A stretch of 64,000 nt of DNA from Minisyncoccota bacterium. Its GTDB lineage: Bacteria > Patescibacteriota > Minisyncoccia > 2-02-FULL-40-12 > GWA2-44-9. The stretch is taken from assembly GCA_018062285.1 (NCBI GenBank), contig JAGOSO010000001.1, forward strand, positions 32,773-96,772. Direction: 5' to 3'. The position numbers and the translations under genes are program-made. Positions 5,175 through 62,170 of this stretch are shown here, piece by piece. The notes beneath the pieces were generated by a model that did no database searches, was not told where the DNA came from, and saw only the letters and a program-made list of their open reading frames with translations. Position 1 is the first letter of the stretch, and each line of letters opens with the position of its first letter.

Positions 5175-5175
5175 C

Positions 5176-6042
5176 TCAAACCTCCTCCGCCAGATCAATG
5201 ACTTGTTCGATTCTTACAACAGCGAAAGAAATGTCATCAATTGGGCCTCGCCCAACCTGATGAAAATCTTTAATGCCTCGAATCATTCTCCGTTTAGCAA
5301 ATTCGCCCGTAGTATTCTTGAAAGCCAAGAGCGAACTCACTGCTTCTTGCCATGAAACACCTTCGACCTGAGTTACACCGTCAGAAAAAACGGCAATAAA
5401 CTCAAGTTCGGAAAGTTTTTCACGACTTAACTCCACCACAAAACCTGATCGTGCATCTTGGAATGGAATTAGGTTAATATTTTCTTCTTCTACTCTGGAC
5501 GAGCACTGCTTGATAGACATAGTGGCCTCAACTACATTGCCACCATGAATCCTATCAATGAATGTGATGGCATCTGCATCATCATACGCCGGATAGAACG
5601 GAGCGTTCTTGGTCCAATCAGAACGGAACATCATTGTTTCCCCGTTGCGATAACGCAAAGCGATAACTCCGTCACCTTGAACATGGACAAAGCCACTATT
5701 CTGGTTAATGAAAATGTAGGCGCAGGTCGAAAGCATATCGACCCTATTCAACCCCAGCATTAGCTGAGTGGATTTAAGGGTCGCCTGTTGGGCACTCGCA
5801 ATCAAGCGAGAATCCATGTCCGCTCGACCGACAAAAAGATGTGAGTCTTTGAGAGCCTGCAATGTTGCCAAGGCAAGCACTCGCGCACCAACATCGGTAT
5901 TCCCACCAGTTGAGCATCCATCTGAAACAATGGCGTAAGCTTCTGTGCCATTCGATCCAGAAATGGAATAGTCTTGGCAGGGCTTCCCACTAGAATAATG
6001 GGCCGCCCCGATGTGGAAGTAATGGTCAGCATAAAGTTTCAC
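5176..6042 (-). CDS. PP2C-family Ser/Thr protein phosphatase (TerY-P triad phosphatase)
   Basis: 288 aa. GTG start with GGAGG 6 nt upstream. PP2C/SpoIIE-like motifs: AIVSDGCSTGGNTDVG, later GDGVIAL and FAVFSDGV. Confidence 0.6.
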   Translation of the reverse strand: MKLYADHYFHIGAAHYSSGKPCQDYSISGSNGTEAYAIVSDGCSTGGNTDVGARVLALATLQALKDSHLFVGRADMDSRLIASAQQATLKSTQLMLGLNRVDMLSTCAYIFINQNSGFVHVQGDGVIALRYRNGETMMFRSDWTKNAPFYPAYDDADAITFIDRIHGGNVVEATMSIKQCSSRVEEENINLIPFQDARSGFVVELSREKLSELEFIAVFSDGVTQVEGVSWQEAVSSLLAFKNTTGEFAKRRMIRGIKDFHQVGRGPIDDISFAVVRIEQVIDLAEEV

Positions 6043-6095: not shown

Positions 6096-6845
6096 CTAGA
6101 TGGTCGCCGCAATGTTCTGACTCGGGCCGCCAGTGCCCAGGGATTGGGACTGGCTCGAGACAGACTGCGAAACAAACTGGGCGATTTTTGCCAGCTTGCC
6201 TTTTGTTGCATCACCGGCGTCGATGTATTTCATGCCGGTTTCGGCTTCGAACTTCTCAAGATAGCCCTTGCAAGACTGAGCGTTGATACCAATGAGCACA
6301 CCAACGAGAGATTCAATCTCTTCGCCGACAAGCCCACGGTCCATCTCGTCTTTGACCATGCTGAGCGTTGCGCTTGAAGTGTTGTCGCCTCCGTCGGTAA
6401 TGACGAAAACGATACCGTTGGCCAGAAAGTCCTGGCCCATCAACCTCTTGGCGTAAGCGTTGGTAGCGCCGACCGCCGAGAAGGCAGCATCGTACAGCGG
6501 AGTCCAGCCACCAGTCCGGAAATCCGGATAGGTGTTCGGGTCAATCTCCCCCAGTGGTTTGAATCCGTGAATTTCTTCGATGCTGTTCTTGAACATATCG
6601 GAGAACAACAGGACTCGCAGGAGAAGATTGTTAGAACGGGGCGACTTCTTACACGAATCGACTGCGGCGATAACGCACCGCCGCAGCTCATCCTTGAAGC
6701 CGCTCACCGAGCCACTGACATCAACCGCGATAGTCACGAGCGTGTACTCGGTCGAGGTCAGGTGATCAATACGAACCGCCGAAAACTGGAAGCCTTGCCG
6801 GCCACCAATCTTCGAGGTTTCCGTGCCGTCATTCATTCGGGGCAT
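6096..6845 (-). CDS. von Willebrand factor A domain protein, TerY-like (TerY-P triad vWA)
   Basis: 249 aa. MIDAS motif VDVSGSVSG (DxSxS), then ...GGWTPLYDAA... and ITDGGDN, typical of TerY-type vWA proteins. GAGAGGAGAG RBS. Start is only 13 nt after the stop of the upstream PncA-like gene. Confidence 0.6.
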   Translation of the reverse strand: MPRMNDGTETSKIGGRQGFQFSAVRIDHLTSTEYTLVTIAVDVSGSVSGFKDELRRCVIAAVDSCKKSPRSNNLLLRVLLFSDMFKNSIEEIHGFKPLGEIDPNTYPDFRTGGWTPLYDAAFSAVGATNAYAKRLMGQDFLANGIVFVITDGGDNTSSATLSMVKDEMDRGLVGEEIESLVGVLIGINAQSCKGYLEKFEAETGMKYIDAGDATKGKLAKIAQFVSQSVSSQSQSLGTGGPSQNIAATI

Positions 6846-6858
6846 GATGCTCTCCTCT

Positions 6859-7686
6859 CTACTTCATGAAATCGACAGAGTTCGTGACGGTCATTCCCAG
6901 ACGCGTCATGTCTTTGAGCCACGCACTGGCAATCGCTGGGAAGTCGACGACCCCCGGGATAGCCGGCACAGGACTCATGCAGTCTTCGAGCAGGTGGAAC
7001 TTCTTGATGTGTTCCTGACCGATGTTCTTCGCGATCTGATTGACCGTGGTCAGCACGCAGTGACTGGAAGCTTCGCCGCCAACCAGAACAATGTCGGCTT
7101 CGGCCATGGTGTTCAGGAACTCCGTGTTCAAACCCGTCGAAGGGTCATCGGGGTCAGGAACTTCGGCCATGAGCGCGCCATAGTGTTCGGTCCAGGGATT
7201 CGAGCCCTTGGTCACGTAGTCGACCATGGCGAATTCCTTGTCCGACCAATGCTGAAGTGCTTCGTTCAGAACAGAGTGGACGTTGTGTCCCCATGTTCCG
7301 ATGAGGCAATGCGCCGGCCAGATGCAAATCTGGTACAGACCCGATGCTTCGAGCGTCTTGGCATAGGCCAAGGCACGCGCTCGGAATTGCGGATTGCGCG
7401 TGGTCCAGATTCCGGCTTCGATGTCCGACGCCGAAATGATCGTGAACGGGTTCGGCTGTTTGCCGCGCTGGTCCATCCAGAAAACCGGATGGGCGATGTC
7501 GAGCAGACGATGGCTGTCCAACGTCACGTGGATATCGTCGAGCTTGTGCCCGATTCGATCCACGAGCTTGGCCAACCGCTTCATGTCCGCATCAGCTCCA
7601 GGAACCGGCAACGTCGCGCCGGGGATGTCGCAGAAGTCGTTCTGCGGATCAATCACCAACAAATGCACCTTGAGAACTTTGCTCAT
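6859..7686 (-). CDS. pncA: PncA-like nicotinamidase / isochorismatase-family amidohydrolase
   Basis: 275 aa. N-terminal LLVIDPQNDFC (PncA VDxQNDF catalytic-Asp motif). Also LDSHRLLDIAHP (metal-ligand DxH...H pattern), K in YVTKGSNP, catalytic Cys in GGEASSHCV. First gene of the operon that continues into vWA, PP2C and kinase. Confidence 0.7.
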   Translation of the reverse strand: MSKVLKVHLLVIDPQNDFCDIPGATLPVPGADADMKRLAKLVDRIGHKLDDIHVTLDSHRLLDIAHPVFWMDQRGKQPNPFTIISASDIEAGIWTTRNPQFRARALAYAKTLEASGLYQICIWPAHCLIGTWGHNVHSVLNEALQHWSDKEFAMVDYVTKGSNPWTEHYGALMAEVPDPDDPSTGLNTEFLNTMAEADIVLVGGEASSHCVLTTVNQIAKNIGQEHIKKFHLLEDCMSPVPAIPGVVDFPAIASAWLKDMTRLGMTVTNSVDFMK

Positions 7687-9043: not shown

Positions 9044-9607
9044 CTAGGCCTTTTTGGCTTTGCGAATCCTTTTTGATCTAATGCAACTCGCCACCAACGG
9101 GATTCTGATAGACAGCCAGTCCTTGAAAATGCTCAAGGCTTCCTTCATCGGACTGGCTCGTTCCCACGAGACCGTCTCGACTGCAATGTCGCCTTCAACA
9201 TTCTCAACCAAGTCTTTTAAATAGTACTGGGCCAGCGTCACGACCCTCAGCGCCCGAGTCGCTTCACAGAAAATAGTGATTCTAAAAGTCTCATTTGTTC
9301 CTCTCTGGAGAGAGTTCCTGATGAACGAGCCGGCATCCTTGATATTCTCAGGGGTGGTATAGGAACCCTCAGAGATATAGAAATACTGGCCAAGGTAGGG
9401 GCCATTCTCCATAATGTACTTAAACATCATTCCACCCTCTGACAAGTGGGGGAACTTCGCCCGTTGGGTAAACCCACCGCAGGTAATGGTGTAGAGTGGC
9501 TGATTCTCTTTCAAGAACATGATCACTCGATCCAGATACGGACGAAGCGGTGAATTCAAGTCGCAGCCATACCCACACACAATCAAAATGGTACGTTTGC
9601 CTTCCAC
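9044..9607 (-). CDS. DUF218 / YdcF(ElyC/SanA)-like protein
   Basis: 187 aa. GTG start with GGAGG 6 nt upstream. ILIVCGYG...ITCGGFTQ...SEGGMMFKYIMENG...ISEGSYTTPENI follows the DUF218 pattern (SGG...sEA..m..yl..G....E..S.nT.eN). Confidence 0.5.
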   Translation of the reverse strand: MEGKRTILIVCGYGCDLNSPLRPYLDRVIMFLKENQPLYTITCGGFTQRAKFPHLSEGGMMFKYIMENGPYLGQYFYISEGSYTTPENIKDAGSFIRNSLQRGTNETFRITIFCEATRALRVVTLAQYYLKDLVENVEGDIAVETVSWERASPMKEALSIFKDWLSIRIPLVASCIRSKRIRKAKKA

Positions 9608-11121: not shown

Positions 11122-12312
11122 TCAACCCCACCTGGCTTCTTTGTCGAGAGGGATGAAGTATGCCACTGACACCTTCGAGGTGAGTCGCCTCGCTCGTCCG
11201 GTATCAATGATGACTCGGTCGCCTTTCGACGGGTACCACCGATGGCTACGATCGTCGAACACATACTTATCCCCGTGGATCGTATTCGCCGCCATCTGAC
11301 GCACGGTACCCCTGGTCTTGTGCTGGAATGAATCCTCATAGACCAGGCCGGTGTTGTAACCAGCCCTGAAAAGCCTCTCGTAAAAGTATTCCCGAGAGGC
11401 ATCCCAGCACCATGTGGACTGCAGATCCTTCTCGCCCGCCTTGATGGCGACCATGAAAAGCGTCATTCCAGGAAGCTTTTCGAGGATGCCTCGACCCGTT
11501 GCTCGATGAGGATCAAGAACGTTCTTGAACACCAGATCGACTGCGAGCTCACAGAGGAGAGTCGTGTTGTTGCCGTCTGCCGCAACCCGAGACACGATCC
11601 GCGCCTTCTCGTCGTTCTGGATGCGAACGAAGTGTCCGAACCCCAGACAGCGAAGCGAAGTGAGGTGTTCCGCCGCCGCCTTGCAGATCTCGACCACCGA
11701 TTCTTCGTCGAGACGCGTTTTGATGTTCTGTTGGTAGCGCAGAACACTGGTCGGAGCCTTGCGGGCCGCCATCAGCATGAGATCTTTCAGCGTGGCATCA
11801 TCAAAGATACTGCCATCTGAATTCGTCGTGCCGAGATCAAGACCGCGCGCGAGGAAGTCGTCCAACATGTTGGAGCATCCCTCGCGAACAACAATCTTGT
11901 CCAGTCGAGCATAGATCATGCCCGCCAGATCTTCGCGAGCAATCCCCGACTCGAGTCCTGCCGCTGCCAGGCCGAGATAGGCGTAGTTGAGACCCAAGTA
12001 GGCCTCACGAACCAACTCGACGCGACGGTCAACCGGCAAAAGGGTGATGAACCCACCTGACAGCGCCGCCCGCACGAAGTGACCGACATCCAGATGATTC
12101 CTCAGAAACACCATCGGATCGATGTCGCCGACCGTAAAGACGTCGGCGTAACGAGGACGGTTATAGTTGAACAACCAGTACGTGCCGACGGAATCTCTCA
12201 CCATGATCTCATCTTCCGTACGGACGGCCTGGCTGAGAAAATCAGCGGTGAGAGTTTTGGAAGCCCAACGGGCCTCCAGCTCAGCGAGCATCTTCTTCGT
12301 GGCTTCAGTCAT
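11122..12312 (-). CDS. hypothetical protein (396 aa), higher-GC accessory gene; shares a 5-prime leader element with the SemiSWEET-like gene at 62171..62458
   Basis: Start set at ATG 12312 (MTEATKKMLAELE...) because GGAGG lies 4 nt upstream. The track ORF's earlier M at 12339 lies upstream of that RBS. I recognise no domain. Predicted helical, about 55% GC against about 43% in core genes. Confidence 0.5.
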   Translation of the reverse strand: MTEATKKMLAELEARWASKTLTADFLSQAVRTEDEIMVRDSVGTYWLFNYNRPRYADVFTVGDIDPMVFLRNHLDVGHFVRAALSGGFITLLPVDRRVELVREAYLGLNYAYLGLAAAGLESGIAREDLAGMIYARLDKIVVREGCSNMLDDFLARGLDLGTTNSDGSIFDDATLKDLMLMAARKAPTSVLRYQQNIKTRLDEESVVEICKAAAEHLTSLRCLGFGHFVRIQNDEKARIVSRVAADGNNTTLLCELAVDLVFKNVLDPHRATGRGILEKLPGMTLFMVAIKAGEKDLQSTWCWDASREYFYERLFRAGYNTGLVYEDSFQHKTRGTVRQMAANTIHGDKYVFDDRSHRWYPSKGDRVIIDTGRARRLTSKVSVAYFIPLDKEARWG

Positions 12313-12391
12313 AGATCCTCCGACGTGCCCTATTAGCACGGTGAGTTAGCGAAATCCAGGTACCGCCTGGCGCGGATCTTACGTTTTCTTG

Positions 12392-12541: not shown

Positions 12542-13033
12542 CTAGATCATGTCGATGAGCGAGTCGATGGCCTGAGCCCCCTGGGGCTTACTGGCACCTT
12601 TCTTTGAGGTGCGCCGATCCATCTCTTCCCGAGCCCAGACAAGCAGTCTGTGCATCTCTCCGTAAATCTCAGAGGCCTCTTCAAGATCGATGAGCTCGCC
12701 TGTCCGGCTGGCACCGTCAATCTTGTCGACTTGATCTTCAAGGGTATTGAGGATGTCATCGTGATAGTTAAGGTCGTAGAGCTGGGTCAACTTCTTTTCA
12801 AAAAACTTCGGAGAGTTGCGGAAAAAAACCGCAATAATCTTCCGAACGTCAGCATTGATCTTTACCAGAATCTTGATAGCGCCCGACTCGTCGTTGTTCC
12901 TCTTGAGAGCCCCGGCCCTCTCCAGCTCTTTCTTGATTCCATCGGGCATAACGAAACCCTGAAAAGACTGAGAAAGAACCACCACCGACCTGACCATGGT
13001 CGTCGCCTCTTCTAACGTAAATTGATCAGCCAT
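12542..13033 (-). CDS. hypothetical protein (163 aa), own promoter and terminator
   Basis: GGAGG RBS. Promoter TTGACT-N16-CATAAT at 13080-13107. No recognisable domain. Weak similarity (LVWxRE segment) to the next gene's product. Confidence 0.45.
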   Translation of the reverse strand: MADQFTLEEATTMVRSVVVLSQSFQGFVMPDGIKKELERAGALKRNNDESGAIKILVKINADVRKIIAVFFRNSPKFFEKKLTQLYDLNYHDDILNTLEDQVDKIDGASRTGELIDLEEASEIYGEMHRLLVWAREEMDRRTSKKGASKPQGAQAIDSLIDMI

Positions 13034-13192: not shown

Positions 13193-13624
13193 CTACTTCT
13201 GCTCCATGATCTCGAGCACTTTGTCCAACATCTCTCGACGCGACCGAATCGCAGCGAGATGCCCTTCTTTCTTTCTCTCTGCTTCCTGAAGGACCTTCCG
13301 GAGGGCAAGGAGAAGATCTTCGAGAATGGCCTCTCGCCAAACAAGAGGCTGAGCCTTGAAGTTGTCCATCTCGTCCAGCGACCCGAACTCGCCGGTACGG
13401 TCGACAACAAGTCGGCAATACTCGTGGTGGGGTAGCGGCATCAACACAATAACACGATGCCCACTTGCCGTCAGCCGGTCGATGTACTTCGCAATTGGCT
13501 TAATACTGCCAACCAGCTCAGTGATCATCCGGCACGCTTGATCAACGAATGAGACCTCGTCGGGCCCCTCGAGTTCACTCAGCCTGACTTTCAGGTCTGT
13601 AGCGAAACTGTTGGTCGTAACCAT
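13193..13624 (-). CDS. hypothetical protein (143 aa), own promoter and terminator
   Basis: GAAGGAA RBS. Promoter TTGACT-N18-TATAAT (-35 13722-13727, -10 13698-13703). The terminator-promoter junction is about 80% identical to the one at 12420-12500. Confidence 0.45.
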   Translation of the reverse strand: MVTTNSFATDLKVRLSELEGPDEVSFVDQACRMITELVGSIKPIAKYIDRLTASGHRVIVLMPLPHHEYCRLVVDRTGEFGSLDEMDNFKAQPLVWREAILEDLLLALRKVLQEAERKKEGHLAAIRSRREMLDKVLEIMEQK

Positions 13625-13906: not shown

Positions 13907-14191
13907 CTACCTCATCAAAGCACTCGCTCGAAGGCCGGACGACATTCCGTCGGAGAAAACCCTGGCAATGAGTCTTTCGATCTCGCGGCCAATGCTTCCC
14001 TCGTGCTCGATATTCACTGCCGCGATTGCGCAGAGCGCGTCCATCGCCTCACTTTCAATCGAGATAAAGTGGATGACCCTTTCGCCTCCACCGGCCTCGT
14101 CCAACTGTGCCTGAACTTCCTCACGACTAGAACAGCTCGTGATTGAAGCTTGGACTTCCGAACCCCCAATCGCAGAGAAGTAGATCTTCAT
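13907..14191 (-). CDS. hypothetical small protein (94 aa, MKIYFSAIGGSEV...), translationally coupled to the upstream gene
   Basis: Its ATG overlaps the stop of the 14188..14550 gene in an ATGA arrangement. Looks like a small alpha/beta protein. The track ORF's longer N-terminus is ignored. Confidence 0.4.
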   Translation of the reverse strand: MKIYFSAIGGSEVQASITSCSSREEVQAQLDEAGGGERVIHFISIESEAMDALCAIAAVNIEHEGSIGREIERLIARVFSDGMSSGLRASALMR

Positions 14192-14550
14192 GACCGCTCC
14201 TTGTTTGAGAAGATGATCACTCCACGCTCTAACGGGAAGGCGAAACATTCTACTTTCGGACTAATCGTCTTGGCCATCTTGCCGATCTTGGCCACGAAAC
14301 CATCCAAATGGGCCGGATTCTTCTCCGCGAACCAATGGGCTTCCTCGGACCAAATCTTAACCATGTAAACGCCACAGTTAAGGAAGTTCACCGCCATCGC
14401 GAGCGGACCCATCCATACAGACGGTTCACCGTGCCGGCCAGAATCATTGATGGCAATGACAGGGTTCTCACCCTCTCGAACCATCACCGTCTGGACACCG
14501 TCACTCTGGATGAGAAGCTTACCTCTTTCGGCACCTGATGTTTTCCGCAT
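14188..14550 (-). CDS. hypothetical small protein (120 aa); paralog of the 73-aa product at 61930..62152
   Basis: GGTGGAG RBS. N-terminus MRKTSGAERGKLLIQSDGVQTVMV resembles MRVIFEDSQWLIQIDSTGDLSIL in the other protein. Promoter TTGACT-N18-TATAAT (-35 14647-14652, -10 14623-14628). Confidence 0.45.
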   Translation of the reverse strand: MRKTSGAERGKLLIQSDGVQTVMVREGENPVIAINDSGRHGEPSVWMGPLAMAVNFLNCGVYMVKIWSEEAHWFAEKNPAHLDGFVAKIGKMAKTISPKVECFAFPLERGVIIFSNKERS

Positions 14551-16394: not shown

Positions 16395-18626
16395 CTAAAC
16401 CTCGTCTTGTTCAGCCTCCGGAGTGTCGGCACTTATCGCAGTAGCACTTGGAACGGCCATTGAAGCAGAGGCGATGCCGGCATGAGCCATATCATCATCG
16501 TTATTGTTCTTTACGTAAACCTCACGAGGCTTGGCACCGTCCCCAGGCCCGATAATACCCTTGTCTTCAAGAATATCGAGTAAGCGGGCAGCTCGGGCAT
16601 AACCTACACGTAGGCGGCGTTGTAGCAACGATGCGGAGGCTTTACCGGCTTCCATGACCACAGCTTTGGCTTCTGGGTACATATCATCTTCGGTGTCGTT
16701 ATCCCCCTCGGCATATCCAGCAGCAACAGGAGCATTGAAATCAACCTGGAGTGACTGTTCGTTGCTGATTTCCAATTGATCGCCTTGATCTTTAATAAAT
16801 TTAACAACATCATGGACTTCTTGTTCGGTAACCAGCGCTCCCTGAACACGACGTGGTTGAGCGCTATCAGAAGACAAGAAGAGCATATCGCCCTTACCTA
16901 ACAACTTTTCAGCGCCTGGCATATCCAAAATTGTACGAGAGTCGATCTGACTTGGTACAGCCAAAGCAATACGAGTAGCAACATTGGCCTTAATCAAACC
17001 AGTAATAACTTCAACGGATGGGCGCTGAGTAGAAAGAATCAAGTGAATACCAACAGCGCGAGACATTTGAGCCAAGCGAACGATTGAAGCTTCAACGTCA
17101 CGACCATAAGTGGCCATCAAATCAGCCAACTCGTCGATAACAATAACGATCGCAGGCATGATTGGCTCACCTTTGTCAGTCATCTTGGCGTTGAAGGAGA
17201 ACATGTCTTTGGAACCAACCTTGGCCAACTGTTCGTAGCGTCGATCCATCTCGCCTATCGCCCATTTCAAAGCACCAATAACTTTTTTGTTGTCAGTGAT
17301 AACTGGGGTAATCAAATGCGGGATATCATTGTACAAAGTTAACTCAACGCGCTTAGGGTCGACGAGAATTAACTTCAAAGCATTTGGGGAATGCTTGTAC
17401 AGCAAGGAAAGAATGATTGCGTTGATGGCAACAGATTTACCGGTGCCAGTCGCGCCGGCAACTAGCAAGTGGGGCATCTTTTCTAAACCAGCAAAAATTG
17501 GCGTGCCGGAAACGTCGCGACCCAAAGCAAGCGGCAAGAAGTATTTAGACTTCTTGAACTCTTCGCTATCAAACATGTTATGCAAACCAACGATAGCAAC
17601 TTTCTTGTTTGGAACTTCGATACCAACCAAAGACTTACCAGGAATTGGCGCTTCGATACGGATAGGATGAGCAGCAAGAGCCAAAGATAAGTCAGGGTTC
17701 AAGGCACCAATACGTGACAACTTAACACCTACAGCGGGACGCAAAGTAAACTGTGTAACGGTCGGCCCGATTGCAACTTCGCCCATCTCCACATCGATAC
17801 CGAAGTTAGACAAAGTGCGCTTGATAATCGTGGCGCTAGCATTAATGTCACCAGTGACAGCTTCTTCTTGGTCCTCGTTTAACAAATCAAATGGAGGTAA
17901 GGCCCACTTGCCGAGCTTAAGATTCTTGATAACAAATTCCTTATCACTCATTGGCTCTGCTTTAGCTGGCTTTGCACTAATAGCCGTAACAGATGGTTTG
18001 AATTCTGGTTTTTTCTGGTCAACAATTTCGTTGCCTTTCTTCACAACAACATCAGTTGATTCAACAACTTCTTCTTTCTTGGCAAACAAATCACTTATCG
18101 AAATATTTAAAGATATTAAAACGGCAATCATACTCAAGGCAATCAAAACAATTGTTGAGGCAGTGAAACCAACTGAGGCTAACAATGGGTAGCCAAGAAT
18201 GACACCAAGATAACCGCCCTGGACTACCCGAGCGTGGGTATCGCCTCCACCAAAAATATAAAATAGGCCCAGGAAAGTAAGAATAAATAAAACTGTCCCA
18301 AAAACCGCACTAGTATAAACCTTACGCGAAAGAGACTTCACAAAAGATACTCCCAAAAATATAAAGGCTACTGGAATAATAAAAAAACCCCAGCCAAAAA
18401 GGGAACGTGAAGTAATATTAAATAATTCTCCTGCCTTACCTGCCTTACCCACAAAACTTAATAAGCTCAAAAGGGCCAAGCTAAAACTGGCAATGCCCCA
18501 AATACTGTTTCTGGTTTCTTGTCCCAAATCAAAAGTCGATACCTTTTCTTCCTTTGGTGGTCGGCCTCGTCTCTTGGGCTTATCATCTTCTTCCTCGATT
18601 TCCTTATTCTTCGGTGGTCGTCCCAT
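16395..18626 (-). CDS. ftsK: DNA translocase FtsK/SpoIIIE
   Basis: 743 aa. N-terminal TM helices, Walker A GATGTGKSV, then DELADLM..., and a C-terminal gamma-like winged-helix domain. Confidence 0.9.
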   Translation of the reverse strand: MGRPPKNKEIEEEDDKPKRRGRPPKEEKVSTFDLGQETRNSIWGIASFSLALLSLLSFVGKAGKAGELFNITSRSLFGWGFFIIPVAFIFLGVSFVKSLSRKVYTSAVFGTVLFILTFLGLFYIFGGGDTHARVVQGGYLGVILGYPLLASVGFTASTIVLIALSMIAVLISLNISISDLFAKKEEVVESTDVVVKKGNEIVDQKKPEFKPSVTAISAKPAKAEPMSDKEFVIKNLKLGKWALPPFDLLNEDQEEAVTGDINASATIIKRTLSNFGIDVEMGEVAIGPTVTQFTLRPAVGVKLSRIGALNPDLSLALAAHPIRIEAPIPGKSLVGIEVPNKKVAIVGLHNMFDSEEFKKSKYFLPLALGRDVSGTPIFAGLEKMPHLLVAGATGTGKSVAINAIILSLLYKHSPNALKLILVDPKRVELTLYNDIPHLITPVITDNKKVIGALKWAIGEMDRRYEQLAKVGSKDMFSFNAKMTDKGEPIMPAIVIVIDELADLMATYGRDVEASIVRLAQMSRAVGIHLILSTQRPSVEVITGLIKANVATRIALAVPSQIDSRTILDMPGAEKLLGKGDMLFLSSDSAQPRRVQGALVTEQEVHDVVKFIKDQGDQLEISNEQSLQVDFNAPVAAGYAEGDNDTEDDMYPEAKAVVMEAGKASASLLQRRLRVGYARAARLLDILEDKGIIGPGDGAKPREVYVKNNNDDDMAHAGIASASMAVPSATAISADTPEAEQDEV

Positions 18627-18689
18627 ATCCCTATATTATCTCTAATCTGCCGATAAAAACAAGTTGATTATTCACTTTATAAAAAATTA

Positions 18690-18995
18690 AAAACGGCGCT
18701 CTCTCGTAAGAGAACGCCGGTCTCGGAAGTGGCAATACTGTTCGTGGGAGTTTGTTTGCGGCCATCCCTTTCAGGATCTCCCGGGCGCGGTCACCCATGG
18801 CCTACTCTTTGCGTCGAGACTTCCGGCTCAACGACTTGGTTCACCTACGCATGATCTTCGACCTCCACGGTCAGCCCCTCGGGGCGGTTGTGTGGACCCG
18901 GGCGGACTTTATTTCGTATCCACCCTCTGTTGAATTTTAGGCCTTACGCGGGACCTGCCCGCTTGGTTGTGCCATATTCAGTTTAGTCGCCGAAC
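18690..18995 (-). ncRNA. candidate GC-rich (~60% GC) structured non-coding RNA / long 3-prime UTR ending in a terminator
   Basis: No credible ORF in any frame (only Arg-rich wrong-frame ORFs). Multiple strong stems, for example GGCCATCCC...GGGATGGCC and CGUUGAGCC-GGAA-GUCUCGACG. Ends with GGCGTTCTCTTACGAGAGAGCGCC plus T-run at 18690-18730. GC content is far above the local core-gene background. Confidence 0.3.
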
Positions 18996-18997
18996 TT

Positions 18998-19234
18998 CTA
19001 GTTGCGCTGACGCGAGTTGACCGGCATCGCCATCGCGGCGATTCCGTGCCAACGCTTCAGCGTCGCCGGCTTCTTGGTCTGCGAGCTCTTGAGCACCGCG
19101 GCAGCGCGCTCGGCGATTTCCTTCTTCGTGGCACCCCAGGTGCCATCGGCGGAAACGGTGACGCCAATCGCCTTGACGACGGCGGTCACCTGTGACTTGT
19201 CCTTGGCCTTCAACGCATCGAACATGCTGGTCAT
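18998..19234 (-). CDS. small Lys/Ala-rich basic protein (78 aa), possibly nucleic-acid-binding
   Basis: AGGAGA RBS 6 nt upstream. Perfect consensus promoter TTGACA-N17-TATAAT (-35 19343-19348, -10 19320-19325), followed by a roughly 95-nt structured leader. Sequence MFDALKAKDKSQVTAVVKAIGVTV...KKEIAERAAAVLKSSQTKKPA. Confidence 0.45.
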   Translation of the reverse strand: MTSMFDALKAKDKSQVTAVVKAIGVTVSADGTWGATKKEIAERAAAVLKSSQTKKPATLKRWHGIAAMAMPVNSRQRN

Positions 19235-19380
19235 GACTGTCTCCTGGTTGTAAACGGCCCACTGCGGGCCTAACTTCTTGGGCCATCCGCCTTAATGCGG
19301 ATCTCAGCCTCATGTATGTATTATACTCCCATTTTAGGTATTTGTCAATAGCCCTTAAAATAAGTCTTATTTTAATCAAA

Positions 19381-19408
19381 AACCACCCCGAGGGGTGGTT
19401 TTTGATTG
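19381..19408 (-). terminator. rpoC terminator (AAAAACCACCCC-tcg-GGGGTGGTTTTT), bidirectional
   Basis: Perfect stem flanked by A and T runs. Confidence 0.65.
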
Positions 19409-19418
19409 TTTGAGAGAA

Positions 19419-22400
19419 CTACTCCATCGACTGGAAGCCTGTTCCGGCTGGGATCAAGCGACCGATGATGACGTTTTCCTTCAAACCACGGAGATGATCT
19501 TCTTTGCCCATGAGTGCACTTTCGATAAGGACCGGAGCGGTCATCTGGAAAGATGCAGCGGACAAGAAACTGTCAGTTGAGAGAGATACCTTGGAGATAC
19601 CCATTAACAACTGTTCGTAAGTAGCTTCCTGTTTCTTGTTAGCTTTAGCCTTTTCATTTTCAGTAAAGACTTTGCGCTTTTCAACAACAGATTCAGCCAA
19701 AAGTTCAGTCTCACCTGGATCAAGAACTTTCACACGAGAGAACATCTGTTTAGTGATGAGCTCGACGTGCTTGTCGTTGACACTGTCTCCAGTTGGAGAG
19801 TAGATGCCGTGGACTTCACGAACGATGTAGCGGGTAACCAAGTCGATATCGTTAGTGGTTTCGAACAATTCACGAAGGTCAACGTTACCTTCACTCAATT
19901 GCTGACCAATACCGACCAAGTCACCGACACCAACCATTACTGGAATATTTGGAGTTAAGACGTACTCTCTCTTCTCGCCGGTCATTGCAACTTCGATAAC
20001 CATGACACGAGTCTTGGCACGTTCTTCGATGGCGATGACTTTGCCATCAACATCAGAGATAACGGCTTTGAATGAAGGAGAACGAGCTTCAAAAATTTCA
20101 ACGATACGTGGGAGACCCATAGTGATGTCTGCGCCGCCAGCACCTGCAACACCTCCGGTATGGAAGGTTCTCATGGTCAACTGGGTACCAGGTTCACCGA
20201 TAGCCTGAGCAGTAACGATACCGACAGCTTCACCCATGTTAACTAATTCGTTCTTGGATAAGTCGTAACCGTAACACAAACGGCAGATACCATTGATGGA
20301 CTTACATTTAACAACGGATCGGATGCGAATAGTTGGAAGCTTAAGTTCGTCGATCTTCTTTGAAGTGTCTTTGTCGACGATTTTGCCTTTCTTGGCCACA
20401 ACAGTGCCGTCAGCGGCAACAATATCATCCATGATGACACGACCCTTGATGCGTCGAGCCAAAGATTCACCACTAAACTTAGAGTCTTCAGCGTAGAGAG
20501 TAAGACCTTCTTTGTCTTTGCAGTCTTCTTCGAGAATAACAACATCCTGAGCAACATCAACCAAACGGCGGGTAAGATAGCCGGCTTCGGCAGTCTTCAA
20601 GGCAGTATCTACGAGACCCTTACGAGCACCGTGAGTAGAGATGAAGTATTCCAAAGGTTGCATACCTTCCTTGAGTGAGTTCTTAACTGGCAATTCCATC
20701 AATTCACCAGAAGGGTTAACCACGATACCGCGCATACCCATGAGCTGGTCGAGAACTGACCAAGAACCACGAGAGTTAGAATCAACCAACATGAAAGCTG
20801 AGTCACTTGGCTTAAGCTGTTTCTTCACGAGAACAGACAATTGAGCCTTAGCATCAGTCCAAATTTCGATAGCTTTGGTTTTGCGTTCGTGTTCGGTTAA
20901 CAAACCACTGTCATATGAAGCACGATTATCTTCAATAAGCTTGTCAGCGGCAGCGATGATACCTGGCTTCTCTGATGGTAAGTGCAAGTCAGCGAGAGTC
21001 CATGAGACACCAGACTGAGTAGCATAGGAGAAACCAAGCTGAGTAATATTGTTTAAGAATTTAACAGTAACAGCTTCACCACGTTCATCCCAGATATCCA
21101 ACTCGATACGCTTAAGTTCGCCTTTGGTCATCTTGGCATTAACGAATGGGTGACCTTCTGGTAAAGCTTTGTTGAAGATAATTCTACCAATACTGGTTTC
21201 AAATAATTCCAACTTGTCTTTGACGGCTGGGTTTGGAACTTTGATCTTGGCTTGAATGTTAACGATGTCATTTTCGTAGGCCAACAAAGCATCTTCAACT
21301 GAGTAGAAGACTTTGCCTTCACCCTTAGCGCCTTCAGCGATAACAGTTAGGTAGTAGCAGCCCAAAACGATATCGTTCTTAGCAGCAGCAACAGGTTCGC
21401 CGGTAGCTGGTTTCAAAATAGCATGACTGGCCAACATCAAGTCGCGAGCTTCACGTTGAGCTTCTTCGGTCAAAGGCAAGTGAACAGCCATCTGGTCACC
21501 GTCGAAGTCGGCGTTGAAAGCGATAGTTGGAAGGGCTGGGATTTTAACGGCCTTACCTTCAATCAAACTTGGCTTGAAAGCCTGAACAGACAAACGGTGC
21601 AATGTAGGAGCGCGGTTGAGCAAGACTAATTTATTAGTCATAGCTTCTTCCAAAGCGGCCCAGACATCAGGAGTTTCCTGTTCGATTAAACGACTGGCGG
21701 ATTTAATGTTGTGAGCTAATTCCTTGCGGATCAAAATACCAATAACGAAAGGCTTGAATAATTCCAAGGCCATACGCTTTGGCAAACCGCACTGATCGAT
21801 TTCCATTTCTGGACCAACAACGATTACGGAACGAGCTGAGTAGTCAACGCGCTTACCGAGCAAGTTTTGTCGGAAACGACCTTGCTTACCCTTGAGCATG
21901 TCAGCCAAAGATTTCAAAGCTCTCTTTTGACCAGTTGAAGCAGCGGTGGCAGACTGACTGCGCTTCATTGAGTTATCAATGAGTGAGTCAACAGCTTCCT
22001 GTAACATGCGCTTTTCGTTCTTAGTGATAACCTCAGGAGCTTTTAATTCCAAAAGGTGTTTCAAACGGTTGTTGCGGTTGATAACACGGCGATATAAATC
22101 GTTTAAGTCGGAAGTAGCAAAGCGTCCTCCATCTAACGGAACCATTGGGCGCAAAGCTGGTGGGATAACTGGCAAGATACTGATGATCATCCATTCTGGA
22201 CGAATACCAGCATTCTTCATCCCACGGATGAATCGCAAGCGGCGAGACATCTTACGGAATTCAAGAGGATTCTTTTCGTTCTTAATCTCCCCTTCTAAGT
22301 TAGGGATTAAAGTATCAAAATTTAATTCTTCTAAGAGTTTCTTGATTGCATCAGCACCGATTCCAGCTTCGAAGACTTCACCGTACTTCAAAGACAAGTC

Positions 22401-22979
22401 GCGGAAATCTAATTCGGAAACAACTTGGTACTTAAGCAAATTGCGGAGACTATTCTTTTCGCGTTCTTTTAATTCTTTGAGAGCTTCTTCCTCTTCGGCA
22501 TTCTTAACATTCTTAACTTTAGATTTGAATTCGTTCTCAATACGGCGCATAGCTTCCGCTTTGAGCTCTTCGTTAACTTTCATAACGATGTAGCTAGCGA
22601 AATAGACAACCTTTTCGAGTTCAGGCAAAGAAACGCCCAAGATGGCAGCAACCTTTGAAGGAACGCCACGGAGGAACCAAATATGAGCTACCGGAGCAGC
22701 CAACTTGATGTGACCCATGCGTTCACGACGAACGATAGCGCGAGTAACTTCGACACCGCAGCGATCGCAGATGATTCCCTTATAGCGGATTCTCTTGTAC
22801 TTACCGCAGTAACATTCCCAGTCTTTAGTAGGACCGAAGATGGCTTCCGAAAACAAACCTTCACGTTCAGGTTTCTGAGTTCGGTAGTTAATAGTTTCTG
22901 GCTTGGTGACTTCACCGTACGACCATGACAAAATATCCTCTGGTGACGCGACTTTGAGTTTTATTGATGCGAGATCCAT
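19419..22979 (-). CDS. rpoC: DNA-directed RNA polymerase subunit beta-prime
   Basis: 1186 aa. N-terminal zinc-binding CYCGKYKRIRYKGIICDRCGVEV, and the catalytic NADFDGD motif. Confidence 0.97.
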   Translation of the reverse strand: MDLASIKLKVASPEDILSWSYGEVTKPETINYRTQKPEREGLFSEAIFGPTKDWECYCGKYKRIRYKGIICDRCGVEVTRAIVRRERMGHIKLAAPVAHIWFLRGVPSKVAAILGVSLPELEKVVYFASYIVMKVNEELKAEAMRRIENEFKSKVKNVKNAEEEEALKELKEREKNSLRNLLKYQVVSELDFRDLSLKYGEVFEAGIGADAIKKLLEELNFDTLIPNLEGEIKNEKNPLEFRKMSRRLRFIRGMKNAGIRPEWMIISILPVIPPALRPMVPLDGGRFATSDLNDLYRRVINRNNRLKHLLELKAPEVITKNEKRMLQEAVDSLIDNSMKRSQSATAASTGQKRALKSLADMLKGKQGRFRQNLLGKRVDYSARSVIVVGPEMEIDQCGLPKRMALELFKPFVIGILIRKELAHNIKSASRLIEQETPDVWAALEEAMTNKLVLLNRAPTLHRLSVQAFKPSLIEGKAVKIPALPTIAFNADFDGDQMAVHLPLTEEAQREARDLMLASHAILKPATGEPVAAAKNDIVLGCYYLTVIAEGAKGEGKVFYSVEDALLAYENDIVNIQAKIKVPNPAVKDKLELFETSIGRIIFNKALPEGHPFVNAKMTKGELKRIELDIWDERGEAVTVKFLNNITQLGFSYATQSGVSWTLADLHLPSEKPGIIAAADKLIEDNRASYDSGLLTEHERKTKAIEIWTDAKAQLSVLVKKQLKPSDSAFMLVDSNSRGSWSVLDQLMGMRGIVVNPSGELMELPVKNSLKEGMQPLEYFISTHGARKGLVDTALKTAEAGYLTRRLVDVAQDVVILEEDCKDKEGLTLYAEDSKFSGESLARRIKGRVIMDDIVAADGTVVAKKGKIVDKDTSKKIDELKLPTIRIRSVVKCKSINGICRLCYGYDLSKNELVNMGEAVGIVTAQAIGEPGTQLTMRTFHTGGVAGAGGADITMGLPRIVEIFEARSPSFKAVISDVDGKVIAIEERAKTRVMVIEVAMTGEKREYVLTPNIPVMVGVGDLVGIGQQLSEGNVDLRELFETTNDIDLVTRYIVREVHGIYSPTGDSVNDKHVELITKQMFSRVKVLDPGETELLAESVVEKRKVFTENEKAKANKKQEATYEQLLMGISKVSLSTDSFLSAASFQMTAPVLIESALMGKEDHLRGLKENVIIGRLIPAGTGFQSME

Positions 22980-28588: not shown

Positions 28589-28702
28589 GTCTGGCGGCTA
28601 CCTACTTTCGCTGGATGAGTCCAACTATCATGGGCCTTAAGGGATTTCACTTCTGAGTTCGGGATGGGATCAGGTGGGACACCCTTAGCATAGCCACCAA
28701 GC
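28589..28702 (-). rRNA. rrf: 5S ribosomal RNA
   Basis: Minus-strand sequence GCUUGGUGGCUAUGC...GUCCCACCUGAUCCCAUCCCGAACUCAGAAGUGAAAUCCC...GCCGCCAGAC matches the conserved 5S core (CCGAACUCAGAAGUGAAA) and helix I. Confidence 0.9.
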
Positions 28703-28796: not shown

Positions 28797-31700
28797 TTAC
28801 TCAAAATTATGACTGTTTAGTAGCTCTTGGCTGAGCACCTCGCGGTGCGTACACCTAAGCCCTATCAACCTCGTAATCTACAAGGAGTCTAAGAAATCTA
28901 ATCTTGGGGCCCGTTTCGTACTTATATGCTTTCAGTACTTATCGGCACCGAACATAGCTACCCAGCGCTGCTCTTGGCAGAACAGCTGGCAGACCAGAGG
29001 TTCGTTCATCTCGGTCCTCTCGTACTAGAGACAACCCCCCTCAAATTTCAACGCCCGCACCAGATATGGACCAACCTGTCTCACGACGGTTTGAACCCAG
29101 CTCGCGTACCCTTTTAATTGGCGAACAGCCAAACCCTTGGGGCCTTCTTCAGTCCCAGGATAGGGCGAGCCGACATCGAGGTGCCGAACACTGCCGTCGC
29201 TGTGAACGCTCGGGCAGTACTAGCCTGTTATCCCCGGAGTAGCTTTTATTTGTTGATCTTCGCCCCTCCTACGAGGTAGCGTCGGTTCACTAAGTTCTGC
29301 TTTCGCATCTGCGCGACACATCCGTCTTGCAGTTAAGCTGGCTTTTGCCTTTACGCTATCGTTCCGATGTCCATCCGGAACTAGCCAACCTTGATAAACG
29401 CCTCCATTACTCTTTAGGAGGCAAGTGCCCCACTTAAACTGCCTGCCAGGCACTGTCTCGATAACACCCTAACAAGGTGTAACAAATAAAAATCTAAAAT
29501 CACTCCAACTAAATTAGTACAATAATGCACTATTTAGTATTACCAGAGTTCACTTTAGCTTTTTATGTTTCACCCTCTTAGGGTGCTACCGGTTAGAGCT
29601 ACAAATCGTTAAAATGGGTGTTTCATTGGCGGATCCATCGGGCCCGAGAGCACGACTTCAAATCCTCCCCACTACGCTACGTATAACAACTCGTAGACCA
29701 ATACCAAGCTGCAGTGAAGCTTCCGGGGTCTTTCCGTCTAGGTGCGGGTAGTCGGCATCTTTACCGACATTGCATTTTCACCGAGCTATTGGCTGAGACA
29801 GTCCCCCAGTCGTTCCGCTATTCATGCGCGTGGGAACTTACCCCACAAGGTATTTCGCTACTTTTAGACAGTTATAGTTACTGCCGTCGTTCACCGGCGC
29901 TTCGGGCCTCCCCAGTACATCTTGCGACATACCAGTTCAACCGTTAACGTTCCGGCACCGGACAAGCGTCACCCCGTATACATCGCCTTGCGGCTTAGCA
30001 CGGAGTTGTGTTTTTGATAAACAGTCGCCAGGGGTTCTTTCGCTGCGGCCCCCATCATCTTGCGATGAAAAGGGCAGGCCTTATACCGAAGGTACGGCCG
30101 CTTTTTTGCCGAGTTCCTTAGCCAATAATCACTCGTTCGCCTTAGTACACTGATACTAGTCCACCTGTGTCGGTTTTGCGGTACGTTTCCAATGTTGATA
30201 ATCTTAGAAGTTTTTCTTGGAAGCGTGCTCAGTTGAATTTCGTCTTGCGACAATTCGTAAGGCGCTCGGATGTGTCTTGCGACTGGACGTGGATTTTCCT
30301 GCGTCCCACCCTCACGCTATACCCGTTAAATCCGATTATACGGTCAACCTACAACTCTCCGTCACTCCTTCGATCAACACTGGAGGGCCAGAATATTAAC
30401 TGGCTGTCCATTATGATCGGTGGCCCTAAAGCCACCTTACACTTAGGCACGCCTAACCCTCCGATGATTGCCATCGCGGAGGAAACCTTGGACTTACGGC
30501 GGTGATGGTTTTCACATCACATGCGGTTACTCATCCCAACATTCTCCCTTCTCAACGCTCCAGCAAACTTCACAGTTCACCTTCACAGCAGTTGAGAATG
30601 CTCCCCTACCACTCGTACAAGTAAATGTACGAATCCACAATTTCGGTATTATGCTTAGCCCCTATACATTTTCGGCGCACATTGCCTCTCCGTCTTGCGA
30701 CGGAATCGAGTAGTGAGCTATTACGCACTCTTTAAAGGATGGCTGCTTCTAAGCCAACCTCCTACCTGTCTAAGGCAACGAACTTCCTTTTCACTTAGCA
30801 TAAATTTTGGGACCTTAATTTGTGATCTGGGCTGTTTCCCTTGCGTACACGAAGCTTAGCCCTCGCGTACTCACTGGCATAGATTTCATGAAGGTATTCG
30901 GAGTTTATTTGGTAGGCCTACCATTGCTGGCACGGCTAACCAATTAGTGCTCTACCCCCTTCATTACTCCATACCGCTGTCCCTAAAGACATTTCGGGGA
31001 GAACCAGCTATTACCAAGCTCGATAAGCTTTTCACTTCTAACCACAAGTCATCCGATGACATTGAGCGATCAAACGGTTCGGGCCTCCACTTATCTTTCG
31101 ATAAGCTTCACCCTGCTCATGGTTAGCTCGCCTGGCTTCGGGTCTTACCTATACCGCATAAAGACATTTCACCTATAAGCCCTAAAGCTTGTAGGTGAAA
31201 GTTCTTAAACGCGCTATTAACACTCGGTTTCCCTGTCCATACGTCCCAGTGGAACTTATAGTGCGGTGTAAGTAAACTCGTCGGGTCATTCTTCAATAGG
31301 CACACCGTTACCCGACGTCTTGCGACGGCAGGCTCCGGCTCTTTGTAGGCACACGGTTTCAGTTTCTATTTCACTCCCCTCGCCGGGGTTCTTTTCGCCT
31401 TTCCCTCACGGTACTGGTTCACTATCGATCACGAATAGTATTTAGCCTTATCCAGTAGTATGGACAAATTCACCCCGGACATTCTTATCCTGGGCTACTC
31501 AGGTAACAATACAGAAGTTCGTTTGGTTTCGGATACAGGACTGTCACCTGCTATGGTCGGCTGTTCCAAGGCCGTTCTCCTACCGCACGAATTTTTAACT
31601 TCTTATGAAGTTTTAACTCCACGCACGATGTGTCTGCGCGAAGTTAAAATTTCAAGTGTACTATCCCTATTACCCCACCCTCATTTTAGTAAACTAATTT

Positions 31701-31982
31701 GAAAATGGTTTAGGCTGTGCCGCTTTCGCTCGCCGCTACTCACGGTATCTAATTCTATTTATTTTCCTTTGGGTACTGAGATGTTTCACTTCCCCAAGTA
31801 TGCTTCCTGCTTGCGCAGAATAATCATGGTTCACATGATTGGGTTGCCCCATTCGGACATCTCCGGGTCATAGCTTGCTCGACAGCTCACCGAAGCTTTT
31901 CGCAGTCACGCAACGTCCTTCATAGCCTATTCGTGTCAAGGCATCCTCCGTGCGCCCTTTAATGTGGTCATTTTGCTTGACC
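28797..31982 (-). rRNA. rrl: 23S ribosomal RNA (about 3.2 kb; includes an AT-rich roughly 110-nt expansion segment near 29465-29580)
   Basis: The 5-prime end GGUCAAGCAAAAUGACCACAUUAAAGGGCGCACGGAGGAUGCCUUGAC is at about 31982. Domain V sequences are present (GGAUAACAGGCUAGUACUGCCCGAGCGUUCACAGCGACGGCAGUGUUCGGCACCUCGAUGUCGGCUC). The 3-prime helix-1 partner is near 28797-28815. End coordinates are approximate to about 15 nt. Confidence 0.85.
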
Positions 31983-57217: not shown

Positions 57218-57252
57218 ACGGGTTGAGCGCTTACGTGCTCAACCCGTTTTAG
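57218..57252 (+). terminator. bidirectional terminator (AACGGGTTGAGCGCTTACGTGCTCAACCCGTTTT)
   Basis: Perfect 13-bp stem. Serves rpmB on plus and the 57249..57506 gene on minus. Confidence 0.6.
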
Positions 57253-57506
57253 TACTTCACGATCCACTTCAGGAACTGAGTGGCCGACAAATCCGGCCAG
57301 ACCACCGATGCCTGCTGACACTCACGAATGAGAGCCTGCTGACAACGGGTAAACATCTTGCGAGCTTCTTCAAGCCCCCCAGATTCCTTCTTGAACGTTG
57401 CACGGTTCTGCGCCAACAAAAGTTCGTGCGCAGCATCACACAAGTTCTTCCAAAATGGGGCGAGTCGCGCATTGCGCTCGCAAATCTTTCCGAACCGAGA
57501 CAGCAT
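57249..57506 (-). CDS. hypothetical protein (85 aa), second gene of a two-gene higher-GC operon
   Basis: AAGGGAGGG RBS 5 nt upstream, immediately after the stop of the 57521..57991 gene. No recognisable motif. Confidence 0.4.
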   Translation of the reverse strand: MLSRFGKICERNARLAPFWKNLCDAAHELLLAQNRATFKKESGGLEEARKMFTRCQQALIRECQQASVVWPDLSATQFLKWIVKY

Positions 57507-62152: not shown

Positions 62153-62170
62153 TTTCTCTCCTTCTGCGCC

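Follow-up and report, generated by a model that had tools for sequence, protein, structure and literature searches.

A candidate family of structured RNA at the 3′ end of a small-protein cassette between rpoC and ftsK in one Patescibacteria lineage

Introduction

Several described bacterial RNAs share features with the element reported here, a conserved RNA core of about 114 nucleotides (nt) with a predicted pseudoknotted fold. The core occupies the minus strand of the rpoC–ftsK interval in a Minisyncoccota bacterium, downstream of a gene for a 78-amino-acid (aa) basic protein (ORF78). We analysed it within a 64,000-nt stretch of DNA (NCBI GenBank assembly GCA_018062285.1, contig JAGOSO010000001.1, positions 32,773 to 96,772 of the forward strand), hereafter the window, to which positions refer unless another locus is named. 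Small RNAs (sRNAs) of the CpxQ and SgrS type have short single-stranded seeds and simple hairpins, and work with Hfq or ProQ. The SAM-II and preQ1-II riboswitches are H-type pseudoknot aptamers with an A-rich third loop, the pistol ribozyme has a hairpin loop that pairs with downstream sequence, and ToxIN comprises a tandem repeat RNA array upstream of an endoribonuclease of about 170 aa. In 2017, Weinberg et al. (PMC5737381) reportedly obtained 224 candidate structured RNA motifs by comparative genomics of intergenic regions rich in guanine and cytosine (GC).

The core resembles such orphan motifs in being a GC-rich non-coding stretch of a lower-GC genome, defined by conserved sequence together with covarying helices and pseudoknots, narrowly distributed and without an assigned function. 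It matches none of the Weinberg et al. motifs as represented in Rfam 15; and, unlike them, it comes from Patescibacteria metagenome-assembled genomes and sits in a 3′ untranslated region (UTR), not in a 5′ UTR or free intergenic DNA. With CpxQ and SgrS it shares the 3′ end and terminator of a coding transcript, and one related locus holds an RNA-only version; however, its predicted fold is compact and pseudoknotted and leaves no evident seed free. The riboswitch-like traits are an H-type pseudoknot formed by helices P2 and P3, a 9-nt A-rich linker and a terminator directly afterwards, whereas there is no sequence or covariance-model similarity to SAM-II or preQ1-II, the core follows open reading frames (ORFs), nine of the 10 loci have an apparently constitutive terminator, and neither a consistent family of regulated genes nor a ligand logic can be discerned. 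As in pistol, a 5′ hairpin loop could pair with a downstream single-stranded segment in a small RNA (about 90–115 nt), but Rfam gives no match, the conserved nucleotides differ, and this loop–tail pairing is supported by invariance only. Finally, as in ToxIN, a structured RNA and a protein are encoded in a single short transcription unit that has a terminator within it or at its end, yet here a single-copy RNA lies downstream of a 78-aa helical protein gene, each occurs without the other, and there is no PADLOC match.

To our knowledge, non-coding RNAs have hardly been described in candidate-phyla-radiation bacteria, which have reduced genomes with little spare DNA. Judged by comparative sequence analysis, the core is a new family of structured bacterial RNA with a defined predicted fold and a narrow distribution.

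Results

Structure and covariation of the RNA core

We aligned 10 distinct core sequences manually, with N padding (an earlier version held eight), and counted pairs in the proposed helices (Table 1). In this alignment, 90% of the cells were paired and 10 of the 30 pairs had changed on both sides; in controls with the partner strand slid by 1–3 columns, 32–49% of the cells were paired with 0–2 two-sided changes, and 0 to 2 of 500 shuffles reached the observed values. Compensatory changes were found in P1 (U-A to C-G, A-U to G-C), P2 (U-A to C-G), the variable hairpin H2 (GGG/CCC, GCGG/CCGC, GCAG/CUGC, GUGAG/CUCAC) and P3 (GGGAG/CUCCC, GGGGG/CCCCC, GCGGG/CCCGC). Furthermore, MAFFT plus RNAalifold recovered P1 and P2 with four covarying pairs and no manual input. 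Because the P3 partner lies beyond the 3′ strand of P2, the two helices together form an H-type pseudoknot. P1 contains U-G pairs in 6/10 sequences, which become A-C mismatches when read on the other strand, and this identifies the window minus strand as the RNA strand. These results show, at the level of comparative sequence analysis, that this domain is a new conserved structured RNA with a predicted P1, H2 and P2/P3 pseudoknot.

About 26 positions in the core are invariant, many of them unpaired. Among these, GGAAG in the P1 loop could form a second pseudoknot with the ACUUCC tail; the two segments are jointly invariant apart from one A-to-G change (in locus L055) that keeps a G-U pair. In such a putative double pseudoknot, GCAAACCAA and GGAAG would be the segments expected to be protected.

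Extent of the structured domain

The earlier note had described a structured segment of roughly 300 nt downstream of the gene. The minus-strand fold of the 316 nt 3′ of the ORF78 stop was more stable than those of 99 out of 100 shuffles (z = −2.76); the plus strand gave no folding signal (z = −0.40). This signal comes from the distal part, since the core plus terminator gave z = −2.1, whereas the 160-nt spacer between stop codon and core (z = −0.9) was not above shuffled sequence. Accordingly, the description held for the distal 114 nt and not for the proximal 160 nt; similarly, the proposal of a novel sRNA or structured 3′ UTR applies to the distal domain alone, where compensatory changes occur across 10 loci.

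The comparison with L003 (GCA_034680565.1) agreed with this division. In the window/L003 alignment, about 100–145 nt right after the stop codon are missing from L003, and the next 130 nt or so are about 88% identical, against a nucleotide identity of 88% for rpoC and 69% for the ORF. For the spacer, neither blastn nor tblastn found a match in the fetched loci, and other loci hold different modules, termed U and M1, at its position. Readings of the spacer as a decayed second ORF or as an RNA module of the relatives were rejected, as no similarity was found.

Modules U and M1 are conserved 3′-UTR modules in their own right, each occurring with or without the core. Module U (GGUUAAGCCGAAAGG..GACGGAGACCAACUC..UUGCCUGAAAAGCAGAAGGAAAC) was located in L005 (4905–4983), L007 (4836–4926), L053 (363–275, minus strand) and L062 (about 455–550), and module M1 (GAUGCGGGGUACCCGC..GGUACCACAUGAGGUG) in L054 (6642–6696), L058 (about 2200–2245), L008 (5017–5061) and L064 (about 700–750).

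Searches for known RNA families

An E-value scan of 18000–20000 against Rfam 15 (E ≤ 10) returned no match on the 18690–19000 element and thus assigned it to no family; the sole overlap was a plus-strand CcsR1 match at 18994–19074, which scored 12.7 bits where the threshold is 65 bits. Scanning the full window at gathering thresholds likewise placed nothing on the element, and the homologous regions of L005, L006, L007 and L010 gave no match at E ≤ 5. The earlier statement that transfer-messenger RNA (tmRNA), RNase P RNA and signal recognition particle (SRP) RNA are absent agrees with these scans. ARAGORN reported tRNA-Pro at 58067 as its only hit in the window, with no tmRNA, and the Rfam scan gave no tmRNA match at E ≤ 10. 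For RNase P RNA (GAGGAAAGUCC / ACAGAA..GGCUUA core) there was no Rfam match in 18000–20000 or in the four relatives, and an RNase P-like string, AAAGUCCG at about 18855, was rejected as it lies within the non-conserved spacer and has no covariance-model support. SRP RNA likewise gave no Rfam match, and the SRP-like GGAA of the P1 loop was rejected because its closing pair is not conserved (C-G, G-G, U-G or A-G across loci).

The core also had no Rfam match to self-cleaving ribozymes (pistol, twister, hatchet, hammerhead, HDV-like). We nevertheless weighed whether it might be a self-cleaving ribozyme, or an RNase processing signal, that frees a stable 3′ RNA from the mRNA. The compact pseudoknotted fold, the possible pistol-like pairing of a hairpin loop further downstream, the many invariant unpaired nucleotides and a narrow, patchy distribution, as in several small ribozyme classes, would suit this idea; with no ribozyme match at E ≤ 10 and no recognisable cleavage-site signature, we hold it to be highly improbable.

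By position, the core lies between an ORF stop codon and an mRNA terminator, as 3′-UTR-derived sRNAs do, and no internal promoter was detected; the RNA-only locus L010 lends indirect support to the idea that the core might accumulate separately and act in trans. Its location 3′ of 0–2 small ORFs differs from the 5′-UTR location of riboswitches. A conserved anti-terminator was rejected, as competition between P3 and the terminator occurs in L010 only and 9/10 loci have an independent terminator hairpin. Nor does the locus have the layout of a type III toxin–antitoxin system, as the RNA is single-copy, lies downstream of the ORF, and occurs apart from the protein.

Distribution and modularity of the cassette

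With the RpoC C-terminus as anchor, we collected 47 Yanofskybacteria-like loci. Model R1, a covariance model of three sequences, matched L005, L006, L007 and, weakly, L010, and a degenerate pattern scan of Joint Genome Institute (JGI) metagenomes added L053 and L054. Out-of-seed covariance-model E-values were 6e-14 (L005), 5e-10 (L006), 5e-25 (L053) and 1.5e-21 (L054). A second model, R2, applied to contigs carrying newly found relatives of ORF78 (family A, see below), detected the core in L058 (2e-20) and L055 (2e-17), neither of which was in the R2 seed; L057 carries a degenerate copy. In total, there are 10 distinct core sequences, all from a single locus in one narrow clade, whose RpoC C-terminal segment is at least about 76% identical to that of the window.

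What lies between leader and core differs among these 10. The window, L003, L007 and L055 have one family-A gene; L054 and L058 have family A plus a second Arg-rich ORF; L005 and L006 have another small ORF plus family A; L053 has two unrelated small ORFs; and L010 has no credible ORF, comprising a consensus promoter, about 230 nt of RNA and a terminator. Conversely, in L004 and L059/L060 the family-A gene is followed by a terminator only, without the core, and L062 and L064 combine family A with other 3′ RNA modules in place of the core; L008 also has other modules and no core. The RNA-only L010 and the ORF-only loci together indicate that RNA and ORF are separable modules. Furthermore, RpoC is 92–97% identical among the cassette-bearing genomes, whereas family-A proteins fall to 25–33%, so the cassette is mosaic and fast-evolving.

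These observations bear on the possibility that the core is the specific partner of the co-encoded basic protein, as an autoregulatory 3′ UTR operator, a small ribonucleoprotein or a type III-style antidote. Family-A proteins are small, helical and strongly basic, their gene lies directly upstream of the RNA in 6/10 RNA loci, and other RNA loci encode other Arg-rich small ORFs, all of which would fit such a partnership. However, L010 keeps the RNA without an ORF, L053 has it with two unrelated ORFs, and L004, L059, L062 and L064 hold family A without the RNA. The protein also evolves much faster than the RNA (65% aa identity against 97% for RpoC, while the RNA equals rpoC in nucleotide identity), and we found no tandem RNA repeats, no PADLOC match and no similarity to known toxins. 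We consider a dedicated partnership quite unlikely.

The same loci address a purely cis-acting role, in which a 3′ structure that blocks exonucleases or tunes translation would stabilise a small-protein mRNA together with the 5′ stem-loop. Such a role would explain why the core is always the last element before the terminator, at the very 3′ end; the conserved 5′-proximal leader hairpin is typical of mRNA stabilisers, and mechanical stability characterises H-type pseudoknots that have an A-rich linker. On the other hand, a terminator hairpin alone normally suffices, and L004 and L059, which lack the core, have the terminator only; the roughly 26 invariant positions, many unpaired, exceed what a roadblock requires; and L010 keeps the RNA though it has no ORF to protect. 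We regard this explanation as unlikely, while giving it appreciable weight.

Around the cassette, the 1.5 kb or so downstream of rpoC appears as a hot spot in about 47 Yanofskybacteria-like genomes (L005–L051), often with a consensus promoter followed by differing GC-rich orphan ORFs. L054 and L009 have ORFs of about 205 aa 3′ of rpoC that are alike over a short stretch when compared by eye. Several relatives have an inverted repeat resembling a miniature inverted-repeat transposable element (GCCAGGTAGTGAAAATYCGAC ... GTCGAATTTCTACTACCTGGC) at or beside the ftsK start codon (L005, about 5228–5365; L006, about 5082–5222; L053, about 96–1, minus strand; L054, about 6929–7086), which is absent from the window. 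In L006 it has ATGGCC on both flanks, as expected of a target-site duplication.

The small protein gene

ORF78 was called a basic 78-aa protein in the earlier note, and its composition (14 Ala and 10 Lys; isoelectric point (pI) 10.6) bears this out. A first, word-indexed protein search returned only the protein itself, whereas an exhaustive search of representatives found a 72-aa relative in L003, in the same rpoC-X-ftsK position, and a 71-aa relative (48% identity) after the end of rpoC in L004. With a profile of seven members, 13 family-A proteins were recovered; the homologues of ORF78 (P0002, P0003, P0005–P0014) are nearly all in the rpoC-to-ftsK slot of close relatives, and the family is uniformly basic (pI 9.8–11.2). 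A scan of a genome collection with the small-protein profile gave no match; presumably, neither the window genome nor L003 serves as a species representative there.

GC by codon position in ORF78 is 0.53/0.49/0.86. Against the L003 orthologue (about 64–65% aa identity, where RpoC has 97%), the nonsynonymous rate (dN) is 0.26 and the synonymous rate (dS) 1.2, a dN/dS of about 0.22; for rpoC in the same genomes, dN is 0.02 and dS 0.71, and the ORF78 protein thus evolves about 13 times faster than RpoC. Because GC at third codon positions (GC3) is 0.86, dN/dS is about 0.22 and the family has 13 members, these sequence data show ORF78 to be a real gene under purifying selection.

Pfam, PHROGs, NCBIfam and PADLOC gave nothing credible for ORF78 and the other cassette ORFs; the only PADLOC hit was a marginal one to Cas7b (E = 0.034), and no defence-system model matched convincingly. 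AlphaFold2 returned a low-confidence four-helix model of ORF78 (predicted local distance difference test score 65–66), and fold searches with it returned nothing specific. A 553-aa protein, P0004, matches ORF78 weakly (residues 77–102 against residues 41–66 of ORF78, E = 6e-4); P0004 is a repeat protein with the unit RRAAVLDxSxKATPENIxSWREIA, and judging by this match ORF78 may resemble a single helical-hairpin repeat unit of that type.

Promoter, leader and terminators

The transcription unit lies on the minus strand between rpoC (19419–22979) and ftsK (16395–18626). Its promoter matches the sigma-70 consensus at 12 of 12 positions, as the earlier note had reported, and TTGAC(A/T)-N16-18-TATA(A/C)T occurs at the equivalent site in most related loci examined. 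The AGGAGA ribosome-binding site was likewise located where described, and a motif ACAAC..AGGAG is conserved around it in relatives. The leader, previously put at about 95 nt, is nearer 79 nt, with the two expected hairpins in the predicted fold: a 5′-proximal stem-loop at 19312–19279 (AUCCGC/GCGGAU core) and a second at 19270–19256 (GGCCC/GGGCC). Its folding z score is −2.0 against shuffles. The 5′-proximal hairpin recurs in most related loci examined, where, by eye and uncounted, the stem sequence differs and the pairing is kept (e.g. GUCUGCC/GGUAGAC, GUCUGUC/GACAGAC, GUCCAC/GUGGAC).

At the other end, the canonical terminator claimed earlier was recovered as an 11-bp stem followed by a U-tract. 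A separate terminator hairpin directly 3′ of the RNA tail is present in the minimum-free-energy structure of 10/10 RNA loci and overlaps the core in L010 only; the distance from conserved tail to terminator is 0–8 nt. Upstream, a likely rpoC terminator hairpin, which the terminator scan did not list, has a kept equivalent in relatives, and Rfam gives weak terminator-like matches only. Downstream, a possible ftsK promoter falls below the promoter-scan threshold; the block AUAAUCAACUUGUUUUUAU..AGAUUAGAGAUAAU at this site is conserved in L003, L006 and L055. Wherever downstream sequence is readable, ftsK, or one small gene and then ftsK, follows the RNA.

This layout raises the possibility that the core is a riboswitch, or an attenuator that depends on a protein, and controls how much transcription from the strong promoter continues into ftsK. 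Besides the constant position of ftsK and the conserved tail 0–8 nt from the terminator, the density of invariant unpaired bases is aptamer-like, and L010 shows a classic mutually exclusive design: CCCGC serves both as the 3′ strand of P3 and as the 5′ strand of the terminator stem, whose 3′ strand repeats the 5′ strand of P3 (GCGGG). In 9/10 loci, however, there is a separate terminator hairpin and no conserved competing pairing. A conserved promoter-like block stands between the terminator and ftsK, loci without the core share the terminator-to-ftsK layout, and the RNA lies 3′ of ORFs, which is unusual for a riboswitch, with no Rfam riboswitch match. We judge attenuation very unlikely.

Table 1 Features of the locus and related features of the window.
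Feature	Position	Strand	Basis or remark
Conserved structured RNA core, 114 nt	18724..18837	−	Covariance models, pair counts, 10 distinct loci
P1, 7-bp hairpin; 8-nt loop (18826-18819) with invariant GGAAG	18833-18827 with 18818-18812	−	Core alignment
P2	18802-18797 with 18765-18760	−	GGCY of conserved UAGGCY pairs with downstream RGCC
H2, variable hairpin, loop always contains GCG	18796-18792 with 18787-18783	−	Core alignment
P3	18782-18778 with 18750-18746	−	GGGRG pairs with CYCCC beyond P2 3′ strand
Lineage-specific hairpin insert	18777-18764	−	Core alignment
Near-invariant A-rich linker GCAAACAAA, 9 nt, consensus G(C/A)AAAC(C/A)AA	18759-18751	−	Core alignment
Tail ACUUCC, invariant, after variable stretch; complementary to P1 loop	18730-18725	−	Core alignment
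Strain-specific 3′ UTR spacer, 160 nt, 56% GC	18838..18997	−	No homologue; fold like shuffles
Intrinsic terminator, 11-bp stem CGGCGUUCUCU/AGAGAGCGCCG, UACG loop, U-tract	18688..18719 (stem 18719-18694)	−	Terminator scan
ORF78 gene, 78-aa basic helical protein, family A	18998..19234	−	Codon bias, dN/dS, homologues
Shine-Dalgarno AGGAGA	19240..19245	−	5 nt 5′ of ATG
5′ leader, about 79 nt	19235..19313	−	Assumes start about 7 nt past −10 box
Sigma-70-type promoter TTGACA-N17-TATAAT	19320..19348	−	12/12 consensus matches, promoter scan
Likely rpoC terminator hairpin AAAAACCACCCC-UCGG-GGGUGGUUUUU	19377..19407	−	Read from sequence; closes upstream unit
Possible ftsK promoter TTGTTT-N16-GATAAT	18635..18662	−	Ends 8 nt before ftsK ATG at 18626; predicted from sequence
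High-GC3 orphan ORFs	1378-2412, 6096-6845, 9044-9607, 11122-12339, 12542-13033, 13193-13624, 14188-14550, 57249-57506, 61930-62280	−	Codon composition

Composition and origin of the GC-rich island

We confirmed the GC-rich island: GC content is 57.5% across 18690–19348, with a peak of 65% in 200-nt windows, against 44.8% for the window as a whole and 45% for the flanking genes ftsK and rpoC. Base for base, the same element is present on two other contigs, one 100% identical and the other, from a second sample, 99.8% identical; it is thus no assembly chimera. The close strains L001 and L002 have zero substitutions within the element and therefore give no covariation information.

The earlier note also suggested possible horizontal acquisition; we found no support for an outside donor. 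The cassette occupies the same rpoC-to-ftsK slot in relatives, blastn with the 659-nt element found nothing in plasmid and phage collections, and viral-contig scans with the RNA pattern and a family-A protein were negative as well. The measured family-A genes have a GC3 of 0.69–0.86 in genomes of 44–52% GC; high GC3 common to the family makes a single recent import from a foreign donor of high GC less likely, and is compatible with persistent constraint or repeated exchange among relatives. Exchange among related lineages is possible, given a mosaic cassette that has diverged far more than the flanking sequence.

In its strongest form, the foreign-origin view would make the island a high-GC remnant or an assembly chimera, with stems that are chance products of GC content. 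A 58% GC island in a 45% genome, a proximal 160 nt that is an orphan and not unusually structured, and a first protein search that returned only the query could all be read in this way. Nevertheless, the identical element in a second sample, the syntenic relatives, purifying selection on the ORF, covariation in the core, and the lack of any plasmid, phage or viral match largely refute it for the ORF and the core, and we give it hardly any credence; for the spacer at 18838–18997, a remnant is possible.

Other features of the window

Nine long minus-strand ORFs with GC3 ≥ 0.56 (eight at 0.61–0.67) have no Pfam domain, whereas housekeeping genes have a GC3 of 0.3–0.45. Several lie behind TTGACT-N17-TATAAT promoters (62564, 57651, 14652, 13727, 12451). 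Orphan genes with high GC content and strong promoters seem to form a class in the window genome, and the ORF78 cassette is its most extreme case. A near-identical hairpin motif, AGGUUGGUUUCUUUAACAACC, occurs in the leaders that follow two of these promoters, 62564 and 12451 (about 62535–62490 and about 12421–12380, minus strand), and may be a repeated leader element. The 23S rRNA match (28797–31965, minus strand) spans 3169 nt against a 2925-nt model, implying about 240 nt of insertions; 5S rRNA (28589–28701, minus strand) follows it, and the Rfam scan gave no adjacent 16S gene in the window.

Discussion

We propose that promoter, leader stem-loop, family-A gene, spacer, the RNA domain of about 114 nt and a constitutive terminator form one minus-strand unit. 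The RNA domain would fold into a compact, probably doubly pseudoknotted body; the unit would be strongly transcribed, and its abundant transcript would keep the domain as a stable 3′ end; and the domain would act by binding a conserved cellular partner, presumably a protein and less likely a ligand. The small basic proteins would then be passengers or optional partners in a rapidly reshuffled cassette. Our favoured reading, held with about even confidence, is that the core is a new lineage-restricted structured RNA that may function in its own right through such a partner, and not an appendage of the ORF. We favour it because L010 has the RNA alone, because the RNA is conserved at the level of rpoC beside fast-evolving ORFs, and because many of its invariant bases are unpaired.

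Several points weigh against this reading. The core is absent from about 40 other Yanofskybacteria-like rpoC-downstream regions, which makes the RNA dispensable at group level, and its confinement to one clade and one locus limits the phylogenetic independence of the covariation. Helices H2 and P3 depend on an alignment that was made by hand to fit the structure, and GGAAG/ACUUCC shows zero compensatory changes among the 10 sequences. The frequent position of a family-A gene directly upstream of the RNA (6/10 loci) keeps a protein link possible. Finally, we infer promoter use, transcript ends and RNA stability alike from sequence.

A bolder proposal makes the core of about 114 nt a new ligand-sensing or catalytic RNA class (riboswitch or ribozyme) of one Patescibacteria lineage, the constant module of a hypervariable, GC-rich, strongly transcribed cassette of small basic proteins whose rapid turnover next to rpoC would stem from conflict or from interaction with a host, for instance as episymbiont effectors or defence factors. 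We rate it as speculative and decidedly unlikely.

The narrow distribution and the lack of an assigned role limit the immediate impact of the finding. At about 115 nt, the core is a concrete small target for probing, pull-down and structure determination. That the RNA is kept at the nucleotide conservation of rpoC while neighbouring protein genes turn over points to a lineage-specific function at the RNA level. The rpoC-to-ftsK junction of these bacteria is a hot spot for GC-rich orphan genes, and as such bears on how minimal genomes gain functions.

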